Positions 1-62,300 of a stretch of 64,000 nt of DNA are shown here, one piece after another. The stretch is from Candidatus Binataceae bacterium (GTDB taxonomy: Bacteria > Desulfobacterota > Binatia > Binatales > Binataceae). The position numbers were made by a program, and so were the translations under genes. The DNA lies in contig DATKOZ010000035.1 in NCBI GenBank assembly GCA_035524375.1, forward strand, positions 135,663 to 199,662, read 5' to 3'. Below the pieces are notes generated by a model. The model had not been told where the DNA came from and ran no database searches. It saw nothing but the letters and a program-made list of their open reading frames with translations. Position 1 is the first letter of the stretch; the number at the start of each line of letters is the position of its first letter.

Positions 1-268
1 CGATGACTTCCGCGCCGAAATATTTGGTGACGGTCGCGCGCGTCATGATGTCGCCGGGCCGCTTGTAGGTGATACCGACACTGGCGACCGGCGGAGGGAG
101 CGGCTCGCCGACGTCGTCGGCGGCATCGTCCGCGGTGGTGTCATCGCCCGACGACATCGCGCATCCGGCGAGCGTAAGCGACATGAACATCAGAATCACG
201 GGAATTACCGCGATCCATCGCGGCCCTTTTTTCGTCGCGTCTGTCGCGATCGCTTTGTATGCCAGCAT
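1..268 (-). CDS. Putative lipoprotein; 5' end complete, 3' end runs off the window
   Basis: Reverse-strand ATG at 268 gives MLAYKAIATDATKKGPRWIAVIPVILMFMSLTLAGC: KK n-region, hydrophobic core and an LAGC lipobox. GC3 is strongly biased, as in real genes of this genome. It lies antisense to the listed 69..323 ORF, which I reject. Confidence 0.4.
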   Translation of the reverse strand, partial: MLAYKAIATDATKKGPRWIAVIPVILMFMSLTLAGCAMSSGDDTTADDAADDVGEPLPPPVASVGITYKRPGDIMTRATVTKYFGAEVI

Positions 269-292
269 GATTATCGGTAGTCTTGGCGGCCC

Positions 293-1636
293 ATGGCGGC
301 GAATAATTCCGGCGAGAAGATAGGGCTCCGCCCGCTGCTAATTTATGCGCAAGGACAGGGAAGTCTCAACCTTTGCTCGACGCTGCTCGCCCTCCATTTG
401 CTTTATTTTTATACCGACCGGATGGCGCTGTCCGCGACATTGGCGGGCATCGCGCTGTTTGCCGCGCTTACGCTCGATGCGTTGACCGACCCGCTGATGG
501 GCAACATCTCGGACCGCGCGCGCTTCAAATCGGGGCGACGGCGGCCGTTTTTTATCGCGGCGCTACCGATGGCGATCTGCTACTACCTGCTGCTCGCGCC
601 GCCGGCCGGCGTGAATCTGTTCGTGTGGCTGTTCTGCTTCGATTTCCTGATGCTGACGGCGCGCAAGGTTTACGAGACCGCCTACGGCGCGCTGATGCCG
701 GAACTTACGCTCGATTACGACGAGCGCACGCGCTTGGCGGCGCTGCGCCAGATGTGCGGCACCGTAGGGGATGTCAGCGGCGCGCTGTTGCCGTTTGCGG
801 CGGCATATTTTTTCTCGCGCGGCACGGATTTCAAGGCGGCGGGCGCGATCTGCGCGATCGCGGCGGCGGGAGGCGCGCTGCTGGCGTACCTCGGCTTGCG
901 CGAGCGTCCGGAATTCAGTGCGCTGGAAAGCTCGCGACTGGGGCCGGCGATGAAGGCCGCGATGGCCAACCGTCCCTTTATCATCCTGCTGCTCGCGACC
1001 GGATTTGCGGTGATGGCGATTAATTTCCCGACCGTACTGCTGCGGTTTATAGCCAAATACTGGCTTCACGATGACGACGCGGCGGCGCGGATGCTGGGGG
1101 CATATTTTGCGGGCGGAATCGTTTCCTACCCGTTCTGGATGAAAATCGGCGGGCGGGTGGAAAAGAAGCAGGCGTTTGTGGGCGCGCTTGCGTGCAATGC
1201 GCTGGCTTCGCTCACGTTCATGGCGGTTACGCCGGAGAACATCCGGATCATCATGTTCCTGATGGCGTTCAGCGGATTTTCCGCGATCGGGATGTGGATC
1301 GCGCAAATGTCGTCATCGGCCGACGTAATCGAGTGGGATGAGGAGCGTACCGGGCAGCGGCAGGAGGGCGCCTACGCGGGCCTGATTTCGATGTCGATCA
1401 AGCTTTCGGCCGCAGTCGCGATACTGCTGATCGGCCCGATGCTCAATTGGATCGGCTACCGGCCCGGGATGGCGGCGCTCACGCCGGCGGCGGAGAGCAA
1501 TCTGCGGCTGCTCTTTGCAATTGTGCCGGCGGTTATCTACTCGATGGGCGCGCTGGTCTTCATGCGATATCCGATCACCCGCGACATGCATTTCGAGATG
1601 CGCCAGCGCCTGGCCACCCGCAACGCCCCGGCGTGA
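293..1636 (+). CDS. MFS transporter, glycoside-pentoside-hexuronide (GPH, MelB-like) cation symporter family
   Basis: 447 aa with about 12 predicted TM segments. Has the GPH N-terminal signature LLYFYTDxxAL and a charged loop DRARFKSGRRRPF. The start is uncertain (293 or a downstream in-frame start) because only about 24 bp separate it from the divergent lipoprotein start. Confidence 0.75.
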   Translation: MAANNSGEKIGLRPLLIYAQGQGSLNLCSTLLALHLLYFYTDRMALSATLAGIALFAALTLDALTDPLMGNISDRARFKSGRRRPFFIAALPMAICYYLLLAPPAGVNLFVWLFCFDFLMLTARKVYETAYGALMPELTLDYDERTRLAALRQMCGTVGDVSGALLPFAAAYFFSRGTDFKAAGAICAIAAAGGALLAYLGLRERPEFSALESSRLGPAMKAAMANRPFIILLLATGFAVMAINFPTVLLRFIAKYWLHDDDAAARMLGAYFAGGIVSYPFWMKIGGRVEKKQAFVGALACNALASLTFMAVTPENIRIIMFLMAFSGFSAIGMWIAQMSSSADVIEWDEERTGQRQEGAYAGLISMSIKLSAAVAILLIGPMLNWIGYRPGMAALTPAAESNLRLLFAIVPAVIYSMGALVFMRYPITRDMHFEMRQRLATRNAPA

Positions 1637-1939
1637 AAAGGAGTGTCTGTAATTGGTCAGGAAATTGGGTTCGTTTCGTAATTTTTCTATTTTTCTCAGC
1701 CGAACTCCGATCGAACGGCGTTTTTCTTGCGCACCTGGCAGGCTGGTGTGGCCATCGCTTCCCTCCGCCTTGCGCTTTTCTCATTTCTCAACACCCTGCT
1801 AACCTGAACGCCCGGCATCGGCCATCGGAACGTGCCTAGCCGAAGGGGCGACCGCCGTGATTGTACTCTCTGCGCGCGCCGCACGTCAGGCTGAATCGTT
1901 CAGCTCTGAACTGGCTCGCCAGTAAGAGACGCATTTTGT

Positions 1940-2130
1940 GGATCGTCATCCTGAAGGCTAAGGCCTGAACGAAGTGTAGGGTCTCTCTATCCAAGCCAGC
2001 GAGATGCGCTGGCTTGACCGGTAGGCTTGTCCTGAGCCGTTCGACCTCGCTCAGGGTAAACTCCGCCGAAGGAATCCCGATCCTCTTCCGCGTCGCCGTC
2101 CCCTCCCCCTGTCACCCTGAGCGGAGGCTG
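1940..2130. repeat. Left-flank copies of a short dispersed repeat family (core CGCTCAGGRTGACA and its reverse complement)
   Basis: Copies at about 1945 (cgtcatcctgaagg), about 2057 (cgctcagggtaaac) and about 2108 (ctgtcaccctgagcgg). The same core recurs five times at 5811–6085 and once at about 6700, in the opposite orientation relative to most left-flank copies. Confidence 0.45.
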
Positions 2131-2270
2131 CCGGAGTCGAACGGGTCTCGCGCGCGAAGCCCGCGCAACCCAGTGCGCGGTAGCGCTGATGATGCGCTTT
2201 TATCGCGAGCGCATGACGGTATCGTCACGCGCTGACAATCTTACCACGAACAGGCAGTTTTCTTTCTTTC

Positions 2271-2873
2271 CTATTTGATGCGGCCAAGAATCCCTGTCAC
2301 AAGGTTCTGTCGCGCGAGTTCCGAACCCACAAACGGGTATCGGTTCTGCAGAAAACTCAACGTAATATTGCCTTGTGAGTAATCACGGGCAATTTCAAAT
2401 CTTAATTCGACTAACGGCTCGCTGTTTAACTTCAAAACATCGATCGTATGGGAAATCTGGCCAATCAAGGCATTTTCCAAACCATCTCCCGGCTGCACAT
2501 AAAAGCTCGCACAGTCCAAGACAAACCAGCCCGCTTGAATCGAAAAAGGGTCGAGCAGGCCCATCTTATCGCCCTTATCATGATTAATCCGAGAGCTGCA
2601 AAGCCGGTAATTGCTCCACTCATATGCCAGTTCCGGGTGTCGAGCTTTAGGCAAGAAGTGATCTACCGAGTAATCTGTAGGAAGCCAGCAGGCTGAGTAG
2701 GCGCAGATACTATTGTAGGCTGTTCGTAGGTCTTCTAGGCAGTTTTTCCAGAAACTATTTTTAGAAAATTGCTTGCTTGTGGGGCTTGGGCAGGACGCGA
2801 GAAACGAGAGCCCCGGAGTTCGAACCTTGCTGGCAAATCCGGCCGGTTCTGGCTGAGAGGAAACTGGTATCAC
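2271..2873 (-). CDS. HNH-family nuclease, PtuB/TIGR02646-like
   Basis: 200 aa. HNH motif CAYSACW…VDHFLPK…LCSSRINHDKGDK (Cys pair, D-H, N…K). GTG start overlaps the stop of the upstream ATPase gene (ctGTGAta). Low local GC. Confidence 0.7.
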   Translation of the reverse strand: MIPVSSQPEPAGFASKVRTPGLSFLASCPSPTSKQFSKNSFWKNCLEDLRTAYNSICAYSACWLPTDYSVDHFLPKARHPELAYEWSNYRLCSSRINHDKGDKMGLLDPFSIQAGWFVLDCASFYVQPGDGLENALIGQISHTIDVLKLNSEPLVELRFEIARDYSQGNITLSFLQNRYPFVGSELARQNLVTGILGRIK

Positions 2874-4744
2874 AGCTTCACTCCTTTACTTTCGGCGAAA
2901 AACAGCCACCTAGGCCAAAATTGATCATCCTCAGGAAGGACCTTCCGGAGCTCACCCGATACCCGATGAATAACCCCAGCATCCGGTTTTACCGTCGACA
3001 TAAGTTTCTTGGCCTCTTCCAGAATGGATTCACTTTCCCGTGAGCGAGCCTGGCGCAATTCGAATATTTCCGAGGTCAACCACCTGTCAACGCTGCCGTG
3101 GCGGATGAACGGGATCTCCGTGAATTCAGCTAACCCGCCGCCGGTTAACCGAAGATGGAACAGTTTGTCAGTACTGTCTGAGAATTCCGCCTCGATCGAA
3201 GCTAGAATGAGCGGAGAATGTGTCGCAACTATGGCCTGATACTGAAGTTCGTTACTAAGTATCGTTGCAACTTCCAGAAGTGCTGGTAATGCAACGCGCT
3301 GCCATTTTGGGTGCAAATGTGCTTCTACTTCGTCTATGAGTACCACGAGTTGCCGTTGTGGTGGGCGGTTTGAAAGTTTAGAGTAGATTTTATGTTCGTT
3401 CCAACACCAAACCAGAAGATAGGCCAAGGTAACGATACGTCTAACACCCGCAGACTCGTTAGTGAAAGGAACATCGCCGTAGGGGTGTTTAAGTGTCGGG
3501 ATCTCACGCGCCTCTCCGGGAATTCGGATGGATCGACCCGGCTTCAACGGAGACATATCAGGGGGCGAAAGCTTTTCCAGTACGGCACAGAAGGTCTCAA
3601 AAATCTCGCGCTGGTCGCTGCTATTTTGCCAACGAACCCAATCGCGTAGAAGCCCTTCTATTTGCCCTTCGAGTCCATTTAAAACTTCGTCACGGGAAAC
3701 CACCAATGCCGCAACGCGCTGCTCGCGCTGAATTGGCGAGTGCCGGGCAGGGTCCCACACGGCAAAGGAACCATCGACTCGGGCATAAACAACCAAGCCC
3801 GGAAGAGTTGGCCGCCCCTTGGGCGCGGGCCATTGCTGCGTGTTCCAGTCATAGCGGATTGTTATTGATTCTGGGCGACTCTTGCTGGCAGCGATTTCAA
3901 ACTTGATGCTGACCGCAGGGAGGGACTGGTCGGGATTCGGAAAAGCCGCCCGACCGGCCCAATGGCCGGTTAGCGCCCACCAAGCACATTCAAGGATAAA
4001 GGTTTTCCCGAGGCCGTTATCTCCTGTAATAATCGATAGCCGTTCCGCCGGCTGAAAGGAAAGGTGTGCGCTCGGACCAAGACCCTTCATCTCCAATAGG
4101 CGAAGCGTTCCGCCGACCTCTGGAACGCTGTCTGGCGCCGGCTTGATGACTTGCAGTAGCCTTTTATCAGAGTACGCTTCATCGGTATACAGCTCCTGCT
4201 TCCTATATACGGTAGCAAGGAACAATTTCTCGCGTTCTTCACGCGATACATAGAAATCTGAAAAGAGCCGATCTTCAATCGCCTTCGTCCCAACAGCGGT
4301 CTGCCAATTATGATTCCGATAGATCCAGATCGCTAACCACAATGCTGGTATAGCGTGAACCTTATCTATATCAAGTTCCTGTTTTAGAATATCTATATAG
4401 TTAGTGCTCCAACCCCAGAGATTCGTGTTCCTCGGATGAACAAATGCCCCACCCAAACGCCCCCTTGTGCGCGTACTTTGCGAGCCAGAAAAGGGATACT
4501 TGTGAACAATCCAGCCGCCCTCTCTACTTGAAGTGCGAAAGGGCTGGAAAAAATACTCAGAATTAGGGTTCGGTTTATAGTACGTGTCGAGAAATGCCTC
4601 TTCTTCGTGATTGATTGAAAATGGAATAGCCTTGCCAATCGGCAGTTGCGCCTTCTTGCATACTAGGTACGAGATTCCAAAAAACGGGTGAAGCGAACGA
4701 AGCTTCTCGATTGCCTCCTGAACGATTTCGAATCGGAAATACAT
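2870..4744 (-). CDS. ABC/AAA_21-type ATPase (PtuA-like) with a roughly 230-aa N-terminal domain of unknown function
   Basis: 624 aa. Walker A ITGDNGLGKTF at about aa 238; Walker B/D-loop LVVLIDEVEAHLHP at about aa 465; H-loop ATHSPLIL. The N-terminal 230 aa (W/Y-rich, YFFQPFRTSSREGGWIVHKYPF) match no family I recognise. Its ATG immediately follows the methyltransferase stop (TGAATG). Confidence 0.75.
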   Translation of the reverse strand: MYFRFEIVQEAIEKLRSLHPFFGISYLVCKKAQLPIGKAIPFSINHEEEAFLDTYYKPNPNSEYFFQPFRTSSREGGWIVHKYPFSGSQSTRTRGRLGGAFVHPRNTNLWGWSTNYIDILKQELDIDKVHAIPALWLAIWIYRNHNWQTAVGTKAIEDRLFSDFYVSREEREKLFLATVYRKQELYTDEAYSDKRLLQVIKPAPDSVPEVGGTLRLLEMKGLGPSAHLSFQPAERLSIITGDNGLGKTFILECAWWALTGHWAGRAAFPNPDQSLPAVSIKFEIAASKSRPESITIRYDWNTQQWPAPKGRPTLPGLVVYARVDGSFAVWDPARHSPIQREQRVAALVVSRDEVLNGLEGQIEGLLRDWVRWQNSSDQREIFETFCAVLEKLSPPDMSPLKPGRSIRIPGEAREIPTLKHPYGDVPFTNESAGVRRIVTLAYLLVWCWNEHKIYSKLSNRPPQRQLVVLIDEVEAHLHPKWQRVALPALLEVATILSNELQYQAIVATHSPLILASIEAEFSDSTDKLFHLRLTGGGLAEFTEIPFIRHGSVDRWLTSEIFELRQARSRESESILEEAKKLMSTVKPDAGVIHRVSGELRKVLPEDDQFWPRWLFFAESKGVKL

Positions 4745-5650
4745 TCAGAGGATCGTAGGCGCATCCCGCAGTTGGTCGACCATGTAACGGCAAAAATCGG
4801 CGTGTAGATCTATTCCGGTTGCACAGCGCCCAGAAGCCAACGCCACTCGTAAAGTCGTACCGGAACCTGCAAACGGATCAAGTACGCGGCCTCCAGGTGG
4901 GCAGCCAATTTTGAGACACCTTTCGACAAGTTCATCAGGGAATGGGGCGGTATCAATACCATTGGTGGGCTTCGGCCTTGCCGCAATGGTCCAGACGTCT
5001 TCCTCGACTACAACGTCGGCTAATGCTTGGCGATTAAAAAAGTAGTTTCTTGACTTCGCAAACATGAATACGTTTTCGTAGCTTCGCCGCGGTCGGTCTT
5101 TCACGGCTTCGGCAAGAGCATGTTTGCGATGCCAAATAATAGCACTGCGTAATACCCAATGTCGCTGTGCGAGTTCTAGTGCTGTACGCCAAGGTATTCC
5201 GATTACAGATTTTGGCCGGATGCCAATACCTACGCCGCCGCTCTTATCTACTGCACGTAAGCCGAACCGACGTTTTGCGCTCTTGCGGTCTATGCCCTGC
5301 GACTCGCCTTTGCCAGAATAGTAGGTATCGCCAAGATTCAGGAAGAGGAGACCGTCTTTTCGCAGAACGCGATACACCTCGCTCATGATATCGGCTATAG
5401 AGGTTATATATTCGGTAACTGTGTCTTCATGGCCGATTTGGCCTTGGATGCCATAATCGCGGAGCCAATAATAGGGGGGGGAAGTGACGACACAATCAAA
5501 CTGATCTTCTGGAAGGTGAGCGAGAACCGTCCTTGCGTCACCGCAATACACTTCCCATTTCTGGCGACGCCCGGTTGCGCCACACCAGCGTTTCAAATCT
5601 CTGGAGCACCCGGCAGTTCTGGCAACAAGTGGGCCCTCCCCCAGTCTCAC
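4745..5650 (-). CDS. DNA methyltransferase, beta-class N4-cytosine/N6-adenine (N6_N4_Mtase family)
   Basis: Motif IV VVTSPPYY precedes motif I LDPFAGSGTT (order IV→I, beta class; SPPY favours N4-cytosine). 301 aa; the true start may be downstream of 5650. Confidence 0.85.
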   Translation of the reverse strand: MRLGEGPLVARTAGCSRDLKRWCGATGRRQKWEVYCGDARTVLAHLPEDQFDCVVTSPPYYWLRDYGIQGQIGHEDTVTEYITSIADIMSEVYRVLRKDGLLFLNLGDTYYSGKGESQGIDRKSAKRRFGLRAVDKSGGVGIGIRPKSVIGIPWRTALELAQRHWVLRSAIIWHRKHALAEAVKDRPRRSYENVFMFAKSRNYFFNRQALADVVVEEDVWTIAARPKPTNGIDTAPFPDELVERCLKIGCPPGGRVLDPFAGSGTTLRVALASGRCATGIDLHADFCRYMVDQLRDAPTIL

Positions 5651-5804
5651 AGTTCCACCCTTTGCTGGCTGTGATGGTGGCGCCTGTGTTCGGGGACCAC
5701 GGGGGCGGTTTCGTCGGATTCAACGCGCACCATTTGGTTGTGCTTTATAGCATAGGTGGAAAGAGCGGCCAACTCTGGAGCGGGGTCTCAGCGACGCCGA
5801 ACGG

Positions 5805-6095
5805 GTAGGAATCGCTCGGGATGATAGAAAAAAGCAGCAGCCCGGCGCACCATCGGTTGCGCGCGCTGCGCGCGCGAGATCCTTCGACTCGTGCAACGCT
5901 CGCTCAGGATGACAAAAAGCGCGGGGCGAGGCGCGGAAAAAGATTCGGGATCCCTCGACTTCGGCTCGGGATGACAGAAAGAGGGCGGCATCCGGGATTC
6001 CTCACGCGCCGGCCTCGCGCGGGAATGACATGGAGAGGGGCAGGGCTCAGGGCTTCGGCTCGGATGACCAAAAAGGAGAGACTTCTCGGAGCCAA
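5805..6095. repeat. Degenerate tandem array (about 4.5 units of 60–70 bp) of the CGCTCGGGATGACAGAAAG repeat family
   Basis: Units begin at about 5811 (cgctcgggatgatagaaaaaag), 5890 (cgctcaggatgacaaaaag), 5957 (ggctcgggatgacagaaag), 6019 (cgcgggaatgacatggag) and 6058 (ggctcggatgaccaaaaag). Each is preceded by gat(c/t)cctcgact(t)cg. Confidence 0.55.
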
Positions 6096-6144
6096 ATGGT
6101 TCACGACCTTGCCGGGCCAACTCGGCAGCCGTACAATAACCCGC

Positions 6145-6375
6145 ATGAGCGGCCATCGAGCGCGGGTCGAGAAAGGGAGGCTGATTCTCGACGAGCCGAC
6201 AACACTGCCCGAAGGCACGGTTGTCGAGTTGGTCGCCGACGACGAGGGCGACGACCTTTCCGATAAGGAACGCCGCGCGCTCCACGAAGCGCTATCCGCG
6301 TCTTGGCAATCGGCTGAGCGGGGGCGTCTTCGCCCGGCATCGGCGATTGTGGACGAACTGCGCCATCGCCGGTGA
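6145..6375 (+). CDS. Type II antitoxin (ParD/Phd-like addiction-module antidote)
   Basis: Small acidic protein (…VVELVADDEGDDLSDKERRALHEAL…). Overlaps the downstream ParE-like toxin gene by 4 nt (ATGA). An alternative upstream start at 6064 (MTKKERL…) is possible. Confidence 0.6.
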   Translation: MSGHRARVEKGRLILDEPTTLPEGTVVELVADDEGDDLSDKERRALHEALSASWQSAERGRLRPASAIVDELRHRR

Positions 6376-6677
6376 GCCTACCGGTACGAACCACCCCCGA
6401 AGCGGACGCACAGATCCGCGCGATCGATAAATGGTGGCGCGAGAACCGCACCGCCTCATCCGAGCTGTTCGCTGACGAATTGGCCGCGGCGTTCGACCTC
6501 ATCGGTCATGCACCCGGCATTGGCCGCTCGTATCGGCGTTCTCCCGTATCAAGCACACGCCGCATCCTCCTTAAAGCCGCTCGCTATCACGTTTATTACG
6601 CGTCAAGCACCAATGAGGTGCGAGTGCTCGCAGTGTGGCATGCACGGCGCGGCGTTGGACCACCGCTTCGCGCATAA
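6372..6677 (+). CDS. parE: Type II toxin, ParE/RelE family
   Basis: 101 aa; EADAQIRAIDKWW…RSYRRSPVSSTRRILLKAARYHVYYASSTNEVRVLAVWHARR matches the ParE/RelE fold signature. Confidence 0.8.
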   Translation: MSLPVRTTPEADAQIRAIDKWWRENRTASSELFADELAAAFDLIGHAPGIGRSYRRSPVSSTRRILLKAARYHVYYASSTNEVRVLAVWHARRGVGPPLRA

Positions 6678-6753
6678 GGCGGGCGCGCCCCTGCCAGACA
6701 GGGCAGGATGACAAGCAATAGAGGGGGGAGCGGCGCGGACGATCCTGCATCCG

Positions 6754-7602
6754 TCAGCGCAAGCCCAGCAGCGAACCAACTATGACGCTCAGGAAGAGCG
6801 CCGCGTCCAAGATGACGTGCGACATCATCGATGCTTCCAGACCATGCCGGAGGTAGAGAGCGCCGAGAACGATTCCAACCCAGGTCTGCGGAAGCGCGAG
6901 CGCGACGATCGGGGCCAGGACGTTCCATTGATATGGGGCGGCGAACCCACGGTCCAAATGCACGAGCCCAAACGCATACGCTTGCAGGATGTTCGCGCAC
7001 CATAGAACGCCCCGTTGCGGCCTACCCGCCGGATCGCGCCAGAGTTGCGAAATTGCCAGCGCGCAAAAGGTGAGAACTACCAGTCTGTAGGCAACCTCTT
7101 CGTAGATGGCCGTGCCGGCGCTTGCGCTGAGCGCGCCGAACGCAAGCTGGCCCGGCATTTGTCGAACCGCTGGCGGACTGAAGCCCCGGCTCAATTTCGA
7201 GGGCCCGGAAATGGGCACGAATCTCAACGTGTGTTCCACGATGGCAGCCGCTCGCTCGGCTGCAATGCTGACCAGGGCATACAGCATCGCCGGCTTGAGA
7301 AAGCTGTGTAGCCGCCGGCCGGGCACTTCGTTTCTCAGCCGGGCCGACAACCATGGCGATCCGGGCAAGCCCAACTTCGGCACAAACCATACTGCCGCGG
7401 GCACCAAACACACCAGAATCAACGTCCCTCGATGAAGATGAAGCGGCCCGTTGCCGCTGATTGATTTTATCAACGGCAATTCGAGCGCAATGCCGGCGAC
7501 GGCAAGTCCGATAAAGGCGGCGGACTCCTTCGCCCAATCCAAGAGCCGCCCCGCAGGTGCCGGTGTATCGATTGGTGCGGATGATCCCAGCGGTTGCGTC
7601 AC
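6754..7602 (-). CDS. CPBP family intramembrane glutamic endopeptidase (CAAX protease/Abi-like)
   Basis: Multi-TM protein with the EExxxR motif (YEEVAYRLVV) and the FxxxH motif (AFGLVHLDRG). Confidence 0.75.
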   Translation of the reverse strand: MTQPLGSSAPIDTPAPAGRLLDWAKESAAFIGLAVAGIALELPLIKSISGNGPLHLHRGTLILVCLVPAAVWFVPKLGLPGSPWLSARLRNEVPGRRLHSFLKPAMLYALVSIAAERAAAIVEHTLRFVPISGPSKLSRGFSPPAVRQMPGQLAFGALSASAGTAIYEEVAYRLVVLTFCALAISQLWRDPAGRPQRGVLWCANILQAYAFGLVHLDRGFAAPYQWNVLAPIVALALPQTWVGIVLGALYLRHGLEASMMSHVILDAALFLSVIVGSLLGLR

Positions 7603-8423
7603 TTAATCGGTGGCAGGAAGTCGGGCATGTCCTTGGAGGCCTTGAGCTTCCAGGCCGGTTTGCGCTTCTGCAGGAAGGCGGTCACGCCCTCGTAGGCGTC
7701 GGGCTGCATCCCCGCCCACATGAACGTGCGCGTGTCCATCGCCTCGACTTCGTCGGCCGATTCCTCAGTCATGAACCGGTAGATTAGCCGCTTGGTCATC
7801 GCGACCGAGACCGGGGCGGTGTTATCCGCGATGTCTCGCGCCATCTCGCGGACCTTCGGCATGAATTCCGCGTCGGGCCACACATGGCTGACGACGCCGA
7901 ACTCAAGCGCCTCGCGCGCGCTGATGACCTTTCCCGTCATCAGCAGCTCGTTGGCGCGTGCCAGTCCGATCAAGCGCGGCACCGTCCACATGCTGAGCGC
8001 CTCGGGCGTGATCCCGCGCCGGACGAATACGAAGCCGATCTTGGCGCTCTCCGCCGCCACGCGAATGTCCCACTGCATCGGGAGCGTGATGCCGACGCCG
8101 ACCGCCGGGCCATTGATCGCGCCGATAATCGGTTTGCGGATGTTCCAAGGGCGCACCGAATGCGGCTGGAACGCCTCCCCGGTTTGCGCGCGCTTGTCAT
8201 AGTCGAAGGTCTCGCCGCCGGTGCCAAGGTCGGCGCCCGCGCAGAATGCGCGGCCGGCGCCGGTCACGACGATTACCCGCACATCGTCATTGGTGTCGAA
8301 TTCGGCGAATGCATCGTGCAGTTCCGCGCCCATCCGCTGGGTATAGGCGTTAAGCCGCTCGGGGCGGTTGAGCGTGATGGTTGCGACGCCGTCTTTAATC
8401 TCGGTCAGAACCTGGCTGGCCAT
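7599..8423 (-). CDS. Enoyl-CoA hydratase/isomerase (crotonase) family protein
   Basis: ITLNRPERLNA…VVTGAGRAFCAGADL crotonase signature. Confidence 0.85.
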   Translation of the reverse strand: MASQVLTEIKDGVATITLNRPERLNAYTQRMGAELHDAFAEFDTNDDVRVIVVTGAGRAFCAGADLGTGGETFDYDKRAQTGEAFQPHSVRPWNIRKPIIGAINGPAVGVGITLPMQWDIRVAAESAKIGFVFVRRGITPEALSMWTVPRLIGLARANELLMTGKVISAREALEFGVVSHVWPDAEFMPKVREMARDIADNTAPVSVAMTKRLIYRFMTEESADEVEAMDTRTFMWAGMQPDAYEGVTAFLQKRKPAWKLKASKDMPDFLPPIK

Positions 8424-8543
8424 GCGATGTTCCTCCTGCGGGCAAATCCGCGCTCCGCATTCGCGTTATAGCCCGCAATTGGCCGATTGGAAAAGCACAG
8501 GGACAACGATAGTTGGAAAGAGAGGTCCGGTAACCGACGCGCG

Positions 8544-9503
8544 TCAGCGGCGGACGGGGCGGGCCTCGGCCGTCTCGCTCACCGGATCGCTGGTGCTCAG
8601 CATATCGCGCCATCCTTTTCGGCGGCGGGAACCGCGCGGTTTGGCGCCAAGGCGCTGCAGGTGCAGTTCGAGGACATTCTTTAGTTCCTCGTTCAGGAGC
8701 TCGATTTCGACCTCCTCCGGCATTTTCGGACGCGGCTGGCCTTCGGCGACTCCACCCTGGCGCCGGCGCCCGTAAAGCTGTTGGAGTCGCAATTCCGCCT
8801 TTGCCAGAGAGGCTTTGTATTTGTAATCCAAATGGCCGAGGGCATCGGCGAGTCCGGCCAGCGCGACGAACCGGCGCCGCATCCGCCACCATTCGAACAT
8901 CGACACCAGCATCACGCCGAACATCAAAACCGCAGCCACTCCAATGCTTGCGGCGGTTGCGCGCCACCAGGTAAGGGCCTGCTGGTTCGCCTGCAATTCG
9001 TGGTTATCGGCGGTCAGTTCCTGCACCTGGCTTTGGAGCGATCTGATATCGTCCTGCGCCGACTCGGCCTTTTGGTTGGAATTACGCAATTGAGCCGCGG
9101 TACCGTTCAATTGCGATTGGAGCGTTTCCACCTGAGCGGCGAACGGATTTGGCACCTTAAGGACATCGCCCGCGACCAATTCATCGTCCGGATTAATTTT
9201 ATTGGCATGTGCCAGCGTCTCGGACGGAACTCCGAACATCTTTGCGACGCCGCCGAAAGTATCGCCGGGGCGAACGGTGTAGGGAATCATCGCGGCCGGA
9301 TGCTCGGAAACCGCGGCAGCCGGCGCAGCCGATTCAGTCTTCGGCTGGATTACGGGAGGAGTCTCAGGGCGTTCAACCGGTGCGGAAGGACCAATCGATG
9401 ATTCGGTTACGTCGGTCTGCGCCGTTGCGATTTGGCAGTATGCCGCGAAGGCGACCGCTACCGCCATCCCGGACAATGTCAGTTTGATTCGCCTGAGTCT
9501 CAT
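8544..9503 (-). CDS. LysM domain-containing membrane/periplasmic protein with coiled-coil
   Basis: N-terminal signal/TM; LysM YTVRPGDTFGGVAKMFGVPSETLAHANKI…GDVLKVP; coiled-coil segment; C-terminal TM. Confidence 0.7.
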   Translation of the reverse strand: MRLRRIKLTLSGMAVAVAFAAYCQIATAQTDVTESSIGPSAPVERPETPPVIQPKTESAAPAAAVSEHPAAMIPYTVRPGDTFGGVAKMFGVPSETLAHANKINPDDELVAGDVLKVPNPFAAQVETLQSQLNGTAAQLRNSNQKAESAQDDIRSLQSQVQELTADNHELQANQQALTWWRATAASIGVAAVLMFGVMLVSMFEWWRMRRRFVALAGLADALGHLDYKYKASLAKAELRLQQLYGRRRQGGVAEGQPRPKMPEEVEIELLNEELKNVLELHLQRLGAKPRGSRRRKGWRDMLSTSDPVSETAEARPVRR

Positions 9504-14537: not shown

Positions 14538-14586
14538 CAGGCTTCAATTTAGCAAAATCGATCGAAATAAACCCGCCCGGCACTAG

Positions 14587-14740
14587 CAGGGTGTTGAGAT
14601 ACTCGTGGATATTGATAGCAATGCAACTCAGTTCTCAACACCCTGCGTGAAAGATGGCCTCTTTCCGCCATCTTCTCCCCCGCTCTTTCGCGGGGGAGAT
14701 AAGAGAGAGGGAGCAGGCTGTGATTTATCAACAGCCTGCT
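14587..14740 (-). other. Cluster of four consecutive stem-loops in the bioD–xseA intergenic region (possible terminator/attenuator or structured RNA)
   Basis: Inverted repeats at 14587–14645 (13-bp stems cagggtgttgaga/tctcaacaccctg), 14651–14674 (aagatggc/gccatctt), 14675–14698 (ctcccccgc/gcgggggag) and 14712–14740 (agcaggctg/cagcctgct, overlapping the bioD stop). Two loops share GAAAGAG. Confidence 0.4.
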
Positions 14741-61467: not shown

Positions 61468-61539
61468 GCCGATGTAGCTCAACGGTAGAGCACCTGATTT
61501 GTAATCAGTAGGTTGCGAGTTCGATTCTCGCCATCGGCT
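61468..61539 (+). tRNA. tRNA-Thr (anticodon TGT)
   Basis: Cloverleaf gccgatg/catcggc acceptor, anticodon loop tttgtaa, T-loop ttcgatt. Confidence 0.8.
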
Positions 61540-61563
61540 TTTGGTCGGCATGATGACCTTAGC

Positions 61564-61649
<86 letters not shown>

Positions 61650-61678
61650 TTGAGCGGAGCGTTTGTTTTGGAGAGAGA

Positions 61679-61754
61679 GCGGGAATAGCTCAGTTGGTAG
61701 AGCGCGAGCCTTCCAAGCTCGGGGTCGCGGGTTCGAGTCCCGTTTCCCGCTCCA
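61679..61754 (+). tRNA. tRNA-Gly (anticodon TCC), CCA encoded
   Basis: Acceptor gcgggaa/ttcccgc, anticodon loop cttccaa, T-loop ttcgagt. Confidence 0.8.
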
Positions 61755-61842
61755 GTTTTACCCGGTCCATCGGATGGACCGGAGATGACGGAACCGCCGC
61801 GAGGATGTTCCTTCGAGGATGTAAAGGGCCGGAACGATGGAT

Positions 61843-61915
<73 letters not shown>

Positions 61916-61965
61916 TTCAAAAATTTTGCGCCGGCGAATCGGCGCGGTGATATTCGAGGTCGAGT

Positions 61966-62121
61966 ATGAGAGATTTAATCGGACTTGCGTGCGACGGATG
62001 CAAACGGCGCAATTACATAACCAGCAAGAACAAAAAGAAGCAGACCGACAAGTTTGCCATTAAGAAGTTTTGCCCCAACTGCCGCACCCATACGGTGCAT
62101 CGCGAGAGCAAGATTTCTTGA
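61966..62121 (+). CDS. rpmG: 50S ribosomal protein L33
   Basis: 51-aa ORF MRDLIGLACDGCKRRNYITSKNKKKQTDKFAIKKFCPNCRTHTVHRESKIS with a C4 zinc ribbon (CDGC…CPNC). Below the 60-aa cutoff of the supplied ORF track. Confidence 0.85.
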   Translation: MRDLIGLACDGCKRRNYITSKNKKKQTDKFAIKKFCPNCRTHTVHRESKIS

Positions 62122-62223
62122 GAGGCACGGGCTTACGCGGAAAATGGGTCGCGTCCGGCCGGACTTCGGTTGGCACGCGCGAATCGTTTCGAAACGGCGC
62201 CCCTTTTGAGGAGATGATGATCA

Positions 62224-62300
62224 GGGTCAGTAGCTCTAATTGGCAGAGCATCGGACTCCAAATCCGAGGGTTGCAGGTTCGAATCCTGCCTGGCCCGCCA
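62224..62300 (+). tRNA. tRNA-Trp (anticodon CCA), CCA encoded
   Basis: Acceptor gggtcag/ctggccc (one G·U), anticodon loop ctccaaa, T-loop ttcgaat. Confidence 0.75.

Follow-up and report, generated by a model that had tools for sequence, protein, structure and literature searches.

Probable Ssn-related motif hairpins beside a Septu-methyltransferase cassette in a variable intergenic spacer of a Candidatus Binataceae genome

The locus and its genes

We analyzed a 64,000-nucleotide stretch of a Candidatus Binataceae bacterium metagenome-assembled genome (NCBI GenBank assembly GCA_035524375.1, contig DATKOZ010000035.1, positions 135,663 to 199,662 of the forward strand), referred to here as the window, in which short repeats lie on both sides of a lower-GC gene cassette. 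The cassette and repeats are located between two conserved genes, one encoding a major facilitator superfamily (MFS) transporter and the other a CPBP/Rce1-like protease (Table 1). An earlier note on this DNA had described inverted copies of a short repeat with the core CGCTC(A/G)GG(A/G)TGACA at the borders of the island and had proposed that they mark an integration hotspot or the ends of a mobilized cassette. Our analyses suggest that the repeats are very probably known hairpins of the Ssn-related motif (SRM) family, mostly decayed, in a variable spacer beside a cassette of methyltransferase and Septu genes that arrived independently.

The low-GC segment is one minus-strand operon that encodes a Septu system with a methylase, with a DNA methyltransferase gene first and the PtuA ATPase adjacent to a PtuB HNH nuclease encoded by a gene that overlaps ptuA by 4 nt. 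In addition to its PADLOC match, PtuB gave NCBIfam matches below their cutoffs (TIGR02646, 32.5 bits against a cutoff of 52; PtuB, 32.0 bits against 150). GC content is 0.511 over 2271-5650, compared with 0.62-0.63 in the flanking genes and 0.604 in the whole window. The drop in GC content described in the earlier note is real but narrower than proposed, as the ParDE-like pair that had been included in it has a GC content of 0.634 and lies outside the low-GC part. This pair consists of a ParE-family toxin gene and an antitoxin open reading frame (ORF) that overlaps it by 4 nt. On the right flank, the CPBP gene is in one operon with an enoyl-CoA hydratase (ECH) gene. As the earlier note had stated, no integrase or transposase domain was detected; Pfam searches found no integrase, transposase, or recombinase domain in the ORFs of positions 1-9000 or in genes called within 10 kb to either side.

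Table 1. Repeat units and genes at the MFS-CPBP locus (positions in the window; CM, covariance model)
Feature	Position	Strand	Description and evidence
R1	1944..1985	+	Decayed SRM hairpin (CGTCATCCTGAAGG...GGGTCTC); 5' half intact, 3' stem eroded; core with 3 mismatches, below CM threshold
R2	2027..2082	+	Decayed SRM unit (TTGTCCTGAGCC...CGAAGGAATCCC) with internal CCTGAGC/GCTCAGG palindrome; by sequence and fold
R3	2110..2180	+	Near-intact SRM (TGTCACCCTGAGCGGAG...GGAGTCGAACGGGTCTC, one extra C in 3' stem) plus adjoining GC-rich hairpin; exact core at 2110-2123
F1	5785..5826	-	Decayed SRM (TATCATCCCGAGCG...), 3' stem lost; core with 1 mismatch at 5813-5826; no CM match
F2	5846..5914	-	Intact SRM (TGTCATCCTGAGCGAGCGTTGCACGAGTCGAAGGATCTC, 5876-5914) plus GC-rich hairpin (5846-5875)
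F3	5948..5976	-	Intact SRM unit (TGTCATCCCGAGCCGAAGTCGAGGGATCC)
F4	5994..6030	-	NTS-like SRM with continuous stem (TGTCATTCCCGCGCG...CGCGTGAGGAATCCC); folds at -14.7 kcal/mol
F5	6043..6069	-	Decayed SRM (GGTCATCCGAGCCGAAGCCC...); by sequence; no CM match
F6	6682..6713	-	Doubtful; SRM half-site (TGTCATCCTG) joined to another type of hairpin, located between the stop codons of ParE and CPBP; 3 core mismatches
MFS_2 transporter	293..1636	+	Conserved left flank; Pfam MFS_2, E 9e-75; 74% identical to MFS of the relative L244
PtuB-like HNH nuclease (Septu)	2271..2873	-	PADLOC PtuB PDLC00348, E 4e-62
PtuA-like AAA ATPase (Septu)	2870..4744	-	PADLOC PtuA PDLC00270, E 2e-230; Pfam AAA_21, AAA_15
N6/N4 DNA methyltransferase	4745..5650	-	First cassette gene; Pfam N6_N4_Mtase, E 1e-37; PADLOC MTase_II, E 4e-79; kept together with PtuA and PtuB in four other loci
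Antitoxin of ParE pair, 76 aa	6145..6375	+	Weak RelN-type match, E 2e-4, below cutoff; promoter-like site at 6109-6137
ParE-family toxin	6372..6677	+	Pfam ParE_toxin, E 1.6e-9; host-like GC content
CPBP/Rce1-like protease	6754..7602	-	Conserved right flank; Pfam Rce1-like, E 9e-10; overlaps ECH gene (7599-8423)

Repeat copies flanking the cassette

We scanned the window for the 14-nt core CGCTCRGGRTGACA at mismatch limits of 1, 2, and 3. With one mismatch or fewer, the core occurred four times (2110-, 5813+, 5901+, and 5963+) where 0.13 occurrences were expected, a number reached in 0 of 100 shuffles, and allowing two mismatches added no match anywhere in the 64-kb window. The repeats are real and non-random, and all credible SRM copies of the window sit at the MFS-CPBP locus. 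Three core mismatches are found in each of the listed copies near 1945, 2057, and 6700, and the "forward" copy at about 2057 proved to be the 3' arm of the palindrome inside the unit at 2027-2082 instead of an independent copy. The opposed orientation of the two sides was confirmed: the left copies R1 to R3 read TGTCA... on the plus strand and the right copies F1 to F6 read it on the minus strand, with the TGTCA ends of both clusters directed outward, away from the cassette.

A covariance model of the canonical unit matched F2 (5874-5916; 36.3 bits, E 2.5e-7), F3 (5945-5978; 32.0 bits, E 3.4e-6), and, more weakly, F4 (5992-6032; 15.4 bits, E 0.076). No other credible match to this model was found in the 64 kb, and the remaining six copies are decayed or bear indels. 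The model, built from pattern-selected units, is too strict, and it misses both R3 and a copy in a Binataceae relative (L245) described below.

The right-hand copies had been taken for a degenerate tandem array with a period of roughly 65 bp at 5811-6085. Tandem Repeats Finder, with a minimum score of 30, reported only a 9-nt GC repeat in this interval and no array of that period. The unit ends in this cluster are spaced by 88, 62, 54, and 40 nt, and the last two of the five supposed array copies match the core only with three mismatches or an indel. The interval is a cluster of five hairpin units in the same orientation, unequally preserved, and not a tandem array.

We also observed two overlapping SRM-like hairpins (CGTCATGCGCTCGCGATAAAAGCGCATC and TGTCAGCGCG...) on the minus strand at 2191-2237, just 3' of the PtuB stop codon and in the opposite orientation to R1 to R3. 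They may represent chance or a terminator, because the generic hairpin detector has a background of about nine matches per 64 kb, too high for use.

Sequence and predicted fold of the repeat unit

On the opposite strand, the complete unit has the sequence TGTCATYCYGAGC-N(3-30)-CGARGRATCT(C). It is predicted to fold into a hairpin in which a 5-bp stem is followed by a symmetric internal loop of tandem G.A/A.G pairs and then by a 2-bp GC helix closed by a GNA triloop; in longer units, the fold has a further helix at the apex. Two stem positions left free by the search pattern covary as Watson-Crick pairs, with 3 exceptions (two of them wobble pairs) in 354 pair-observations from 177 units. The commonest apices, GCAG, GAAG, and GGAG, yield GC-GNA-GC mini-hairpins, and sequence conservation stops at the unit borders. 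Single units did not fold better than shuffled sequence (z of -0.7 to +0.9).

At the locus, xGTC directly precedes the palindrome as TGTC in R3, F2, F3, F4, and F6 and as CGTC in R1; F1 (TATC) and F5 (GGTC) vary at this position. The AT...AT stems are intact in F2 (ATCCT/AGGAT), F3 (ATCCC/GGGAT), and F4 (ATTCC/GGAAT), and R3 has one inserted base. A C follows the palindrome in F2 (GGATC), F3 (GGGATC), F4 (GGAATC), and R3 (GGGTC). This C was fixed in the search pattern, so that its invariance in 140 aligned units is by construction, and the only independent family-wide signal there is the next base, a T in 129 of 175 units.

Rfam was searched with the window at gathering thresholds and, at E-value thresholds, with the locus and six motif-rich loci; no relevant family was returned, only spurious miRNA and snoRNA models. 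Resemblances to hammerhead-like elements, k-turns, attC, dif/pdif, and the IncP nic site were dropped because the conserved positions do not fit.

These features bear on whether the repeats might be a chance likeness of a GC-rich palindromic spacer, with no repeat family at the locus at all. Six of the nine claimed copies need three mismatches or indels, 34 sites of the window match the 14-mer at up to three mismatches, and the generic detector has the background of about nine matches per 64 kb noted above, all of which would fit a coincidence. A coincidence would not produce the excess of core matches at one mismatch or fewer, all of them at the locus, two covariance model matches with E below 1e-5 only 29 nt apart (5945-5978 and 5874-5916), or units that match a motif with covarying stems in hundreds of unrelated contigs. 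We consider chance refuted by the core-match excess, the stem covariation, and the model matches, which leave it next to no probability.

Occurrence of the motif in other genomes and viruses

The pattern TGTCATYCYGAGC-N(3-30)-CGARGRATC was found at at least 120 loci in IMG/VR and at least 120 in GTDB species genomes. The hosts among the matches listed belong to more than ten phyla and include Candidate Phyla Radiation (CPR) groups and one isolate, Lacinutrix; the phyla listed were Nitrospirota, Firmicutes, Bacteroidota, Chloroflexota, Planctomycetota, Acidobacteriota, Proteobacteria, Verrucomicrobiota, Gemmatimonadota, and Campylobacterota. These results uphold the comparison with repetitive extragenic palindromic (REP) sequences or miniature transposable elements with inverted repeats (MITEs) made in the earlier note, to the extent that the copies belong to an interspersed hairpin family. 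Clustering of 509 flanking ORFs by blastp revealed no recurrent neighbor family, and literature matches to the raw motif or its peptide translations were limited to human primer sequences. In the viral-class contigs of IMG/VR (L004-L123, at least 120 stretches), the motif was common and often lay between phage structural genes, such as portal-like genes.

Neighboring copies are mostly close doublets with TGTCA outward: in 86 of 94 outward pairs, a distance of less than 150 bp separates the two copies. Distances above 600 bp are rare among outward pairs, and the pairs of this kind enclose genes for a carboxypeptidase, a BtpA protein, and a Cys/Met pyridoxal phosphate (PLP) enzyme, all of native GC content. 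In one Dehalococcoidia chromosome (OZ244885.1; L153, 6240-7145), two housekeeping-type genes are separated by about 0.9 kb of spacer made of three tandem units of about 330 bp, each with outward SRM doublets (TGTCATTCCGAGCGACAGCCGAGGAATCCCAACCG...) and other hairpins, such that SRMs seed larger composite repeats.

The arrangement of genes around the motif allowed us to weigh a role at the RNA level, in which the repeats, in the manner proposed for REP sequences, would stabilize the 3' ends of the convergent transcripts of MFS and CPBP or act like terminators for them, and their adjacency to the island would be incidental. The left copies lie downstream of MFS and F6 downstream of CPBP, both in the sense orientation, and a count over 240 loci places the motif less often between divergent genes (30) than in each of the other arrangements (76-86), as such a role would lead one to expect. 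Between tandem genes, however, copies have no preference for the transcribed strand (76 versus 78), which fits an element acting at the level of DNA rather than RNA. Furthermore, F1 to F5 lie upstream of both neighboring operons, no T-run follows the hairpins, a terminator scan was negative at these sites, fold energies did not exceed those of shuffles as noted above, and the RNA form is not bound by SsnA of Neisseria, the nuclease that recognizes these hairpins in that genus (PMC11893778). An RNA-level role is highly improbable given this evidence.

Relation to the Ssn nucleases and Ssn-related motifs

In Neisseria, the hairpin known as the Neisseria Transformation Sequence (NTS) is defined as CGTCATTCCCGCGMAVGCGGGAATCYRG, which contains the old dRS3 repeat, with the variant CGTCATACTCGGGNNNNNCCCGAGTATC, and the wider class has been named SRM (Chenal et al., Nat Commun 2025, PMC11893778). 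SsnA is a 94-aa GIY-YIG protein (CDD cd10448) that binds the hairpin only as single-stranded DNA (ssDNA) and only on the xGTCAT strand, and it cleaves 5' of the motif at a distance of a few nucleotides; cutting requires the GTC that precedes the palindrome, the most important base for binding is the C that follows it, and the loop is dispensable (PMC11893778). At least one SRM flanks 71% of ssn genes and 42% have SRMs on both sides, and NTS-flanked DNA transformed about five-fold better in an ssnA knockout (PMC11893778). The authors liken NTS-ssnA-NTS to an insertion sequence and draw a parallel to REP sequences and their associated tyrosine transposases (RAYTs), with gene-free copies and close doublets behaving like REP/REPIN or MITE derivatives; no transposition activity of Ssn was shown (PMC11893778). 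The known behavior of Ssn, a single-domain nuclease of roughly 95 aa, comes from Neisseria and three other tested species, and the biochemistry of binding and cleavage from the Neisseria and Wolbachia homologues (PMC11893778).

By inspecting outward motif pairs that enclose an ORF, we found a 109-aa GIY-YIG gene bracketed exactly by such a pair in one locus (L167) and an equally exact bracketing of a small GIY-YIG gene in another (L215). We then examined a set of 80 metagenomic loci (L258-L337) encoding the L167-type GIY-YIG family. An oriented motif half was located within 300 bp upstream of the GIY-YIG gene in 55 loci (71 of the 80 have at least 150 bp of upstream sequence), and a reverse half within 200 bp downstream in 56 (75 of the 80 have at least 100 bp downstream). 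The motif was present on both sides in 45 of the 80, compared with 42% for the published ssn genes (PMC11893778). The repeats studied here and the NTS/SRM hairpins also share oriented and mostly intergenic copies, clusters of the "SRM-gene-SRM" kind, and a wide phylogenetic spread.

The constant features of NTS/SRM hairpins are an xGTC immediately 5' of the stem, AT at both the start and the close of the stem, a C directly after it, and an apex that is variable or dispensable (PMC11893778), and the window units have these features. From these shared features and the association described above, we assign the window repeats to a G.A subtype of the SRM family. The continuous 8-bp stem of NTS (ATTCCCGC/GCGGGAAT) is replaced in this subtype by the tandem G.A internal loop with a GC-GNA-GC or extended apex; F4 alone is NTS-like. 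The GA subtype accounted for 212 of the 264 hairpins in the 80 Ssn-like loci.

The degenerate SRM string published for searches, HGTCWYN(0-2)YYVSBRHN(0-5)WNVSBRGN(0-2)RNCYNB, is a search device derived from 29 genomes rather than a definition of the family. It found 6 sites in the 80 Ssn-type loci, compared with 146 for the G.A-type pattern, and 20 compared with 257 in 120 genome loci (L124-L243). The string misses the GA subtype because the G.A internal loop violates it. The GA subtype, with its tandem G.A loop and GNA apex, seems very widespread from the matches in both the genome and the viral collections, and surveys using the string probably undercount the family.

The spacer in relatives and other settings of the cassette

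Relatives were identified through the ECH protein; a search with CPBP of JGI metagenomes gave none. Binataceae relatives with ECH proteins 74-79% identical had other content at this position, and the island was present in none of them. L244 carries the orthologous MFS gene (74% identity) at a distance of 74 bp from ECH. In L245 and L246, the gene after ECH-CPBP is orthologous (54% identity) to the one located beyond MFS in the genome studied here, and L247-L250 have a nitroreductase at the corresponding position, with ECH-CPBP kept throughout L245-L250. The BioD-XseAB-FtsJ-ROK-LysM-ECH(-CPBP) block is conserved in the relatives and the content that follows it is not. Because relatives differ past this block, the stretch of 5.1 kb that separates the stop codons of CPBP and MFS is lineage-specific and the spot variable. 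The proposal of an integration-prone spot holds insofar as relatives have MFS-ECH or ECH-CPBP neighborhoods without the island.

The repeats are not restricted to the island. In one relative, L245, the spacer between bioD and xseA holds an intact SRM (CGTCATCTTGAGCGGAGTCTGCGGAGTCGAAAGATCTC, 3910-3947), and the orthologous spacer of the genome studied here (14538-14738) contains no SRM and an unrelated hairpin instead. This SRM is a presence/absence polymorphism at a housekeeping site, and for this reason we regard the SRM family as neither island-specific nor fixed in position.

Homologues of the cassette, with methyltransferase, PtuA, and PtuB at 65-72% identity, were found in three other contexts: after fmt (L251), after dnaJ (L252-255, apparently from another Binataceae genome), and after an ECH gene (L256/257). 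With the window included, the three genes form a fixed unit in at least four genomic contexts, in every one of which the GC content of the cassette is below that of its surroundings. In L251, L252-255, and L256/257, DNA similarity ends at the coding ends and no SRM is present at the borders, nor did we find conserved non-coding ends common to the cassette copies in other hosts. The window proteins resemble Septu in their full-length PADLOC matches and overlapping genes and differ from it in the conserved upstream N6/N4 methyltransferase that travels along, which is a property of the cargo and not of the repeats. We also noticed that in PtuA the ATPase core is preceded by an N-terminal region of about 210 aa.

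The best inverted repeat of the locus raises the question of whether the repeats carried the cassette in. It pairs 2143-2179 with 5846-5882 (37 nt, 81% complementary), with R3 as its left and F2 as its right arm, and each arm is about 70 nt long when the adjoining core motifs are included. The right junction, including F2, is identical base for base in an independent Logan assembly (L002). As terminal inverted repeats, R3 (2110-2180) and F2 (5846-5914) could bound a MITE-like composite element that brought in the Septu-methyltransferase cassette and was mobilized in trans by a transposase or nuclease encoded elsewhere. Their similarity extends beyond the universal core, and the extension had no other copy among 337 fetched loci. 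The TGTCA ends face outward with the geometry of the short doublets and of NTS-ssn-NTS units, and the low-GC segment lies wholly inside the arms, so that the roughly 70-nt inverted arms with TGT...ACA-type termini enclose a segment of about 3.7 kb of foreign composition as in a MITE or composite element. Against this origin, the outer flanks (...CTCCCCC|TGTCAC left of R3 and GATGACA|AAAAGCG right of F2) share no direct repeat, so this best inverted pair has no target-site duplication. The cassette homologues in other contexts lack the arms, the decayed unit F1 lies inside the right arm, and no transposase (domain scan of 1-9000) or ssn gene (search of about 71 kb) was found. In other genomes, the genes enclosed by outward pairs spaced at kilobase distance are housekeeping genes of native GC content, and no transposition by Ssn has been shown (PMC11893778). 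Each arm is also an internal hairpin with a covarying stem, which inverted repeats recognized as double-stranded DNA would not need. A composite element is improbable on this evidence. That the SRM clusters are the ends of the cassette, as first proposed, is not supported, and the locus is a further example of a known arrangement rather than a new kind of mobile element.

A model for the history of the locus

Our preferred reading, SRM hairpins beside an independently arrived cassette, would account for the locus as follows. SRM units would have built up between the convergently oriented MFS and ECH-CPBP genes, in a spacer that is non-essential and prone to recombination, and the foreign lower-GC MTase-PtuA-PtuB cassette would have arrived independently, with the ParE toxin-antitoxin pair occupying the same spacer. 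The cassette would thereby have come to lie between the oppositely oriented left and right clusters, and it may have landed inside a former R3/F2 doublet. We infer this order of events from the arrangement of the locus, and the same holds for any present-day activity or effect on transformation. If the genome encodes a cognate Ssn, this nuclease would cut the plus strand just left of 1944, 2027, and 2110 and the minus strand just right of 5826, 5914, 5976, 6030, and 6069. All of these predicted cuts lie outside the cassette, such that either incoming transforming strand would lose one of its two homology arms, and the cassette would as a result be gained, lost, or replaced by recombination less often.

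Several observations weigh against this reading. The window contains no match to the published SRM string, where 0.45 would be expected, and of the 80 Ssn loci only 4 contain one, so that membership in the SRM family rests on the shared constant features and the association test instead of the operational definition of its authors. The closest solved structure to the GIY-YIG proteins is the UPF0213 protein BH0048 (1ZG2, E 2e-4). Searches with hmmsearch --max (E up to 10) revealed no ssn (GIY-YIG) homologue in the 64-kb window, in a 7-kb extension to its left (L003), or in about 107 kb of distinct loci from relatives; the portion of the host genome read for ssn is about 71 kb, and a cognate nuclease in the host is therefore hypothetical. 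Only three of the nine copies are intact, a state more in keeping with relics than with a maintained system. Finally, the density of SRMs in Binataceae appears low, at about one intact copy in roughly 107 kb of distinct loci from relatives, and this background alone does not explain a nine-copy cluster beside the island.

A more far-reaching version, which we think unlikely, is that the opposed SRM clusters and an Ssn encoded elsewhere form a working "ssDNA fence," cutting any strand of the locus that enters a cell on the outer side of the cassette, by which restriction of transformation controls the gain, loss, or replacement of an anti-phage island, and that the cassette landed in the middle of a doublet, with SRM doublets as preferred landing pads for defense cassettes.

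With the SRM reading, what appeared to be a new cassette-mobilizing repeat finds its explanation in a system described in 2025 (PMC11893778), and no new mechanism is shown here. The locus would extend SRM hairpins to an uncultured phylum, Binatota, and it presents a defense cassette in the "SRM-gene-SRM" layout, the configuration that lowers transformation in Neisseria. Compared with the published SRMs, this locus differs in the lack of a match to the degenerate string and of an ssn gene found nearby, in a Binatota host and Septu-methyltransferase cargo not described there, and in the GA subtype itself.

The dRS3 repeats, neisserial intergenic mosaic elements (NIMEs), and minimal mobile elements of Neisseria provide a precedent for hairpin repeats that cluster in spacers with strain-variable cassettes between conserved genes, and repeats of this sort are thought to mark recombination-prone or phage-integration sites in that genus. 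Unlike those of Neisseria, the repeats here show no evidence of use in inter-strain homologous exchange, are accompanied by no Nf-type phage or Piv/IS110-type recombinase, and occur at a density far below the hundreds of copies per Neisseria genome. The units resemble REP/REPIN sequences as interspersed imperfect palindromes of 20-40 nt, often in inverted doublets, and the REP-RAYT pairing in recognition of an ssDNA hairpin, a conserved 5' tetranucleotide, and a cognate gene flanked by its own repeats. They differ in that the 5' element is xGTC rather than GTAG, the enzyme is a GIY-YIG nuclease rather than a Y1 HUH enzyme, and the SRM core is conserved across phyla, whereas REP sequences are species-specific.

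Other features of the window

Gene callers, as seen in L001 and L002, extend the antitoxin ORF upstream to 5821, through the repeat cluster, to give a 184-aa protein (5821-6375, plus strand) with a first stretch of about 108 residues that is a translation of the SRM cluster (...LAQDDKK...LGMTE...AGMTW...ARMTKK). The true start is probably at 6145, for a protein of 76 aa. SRM-derived peptides are likely to be a common annotation artifact wherever SRMs occur, as in this 184-aa "protein" called in place of the 76-aa antitoxin. Far from the locus and unrelated to the repeats, the plus strand at 61468-62297 carries a cluster of five tRNA genes (Rfam tRNA, 55-76 bits).

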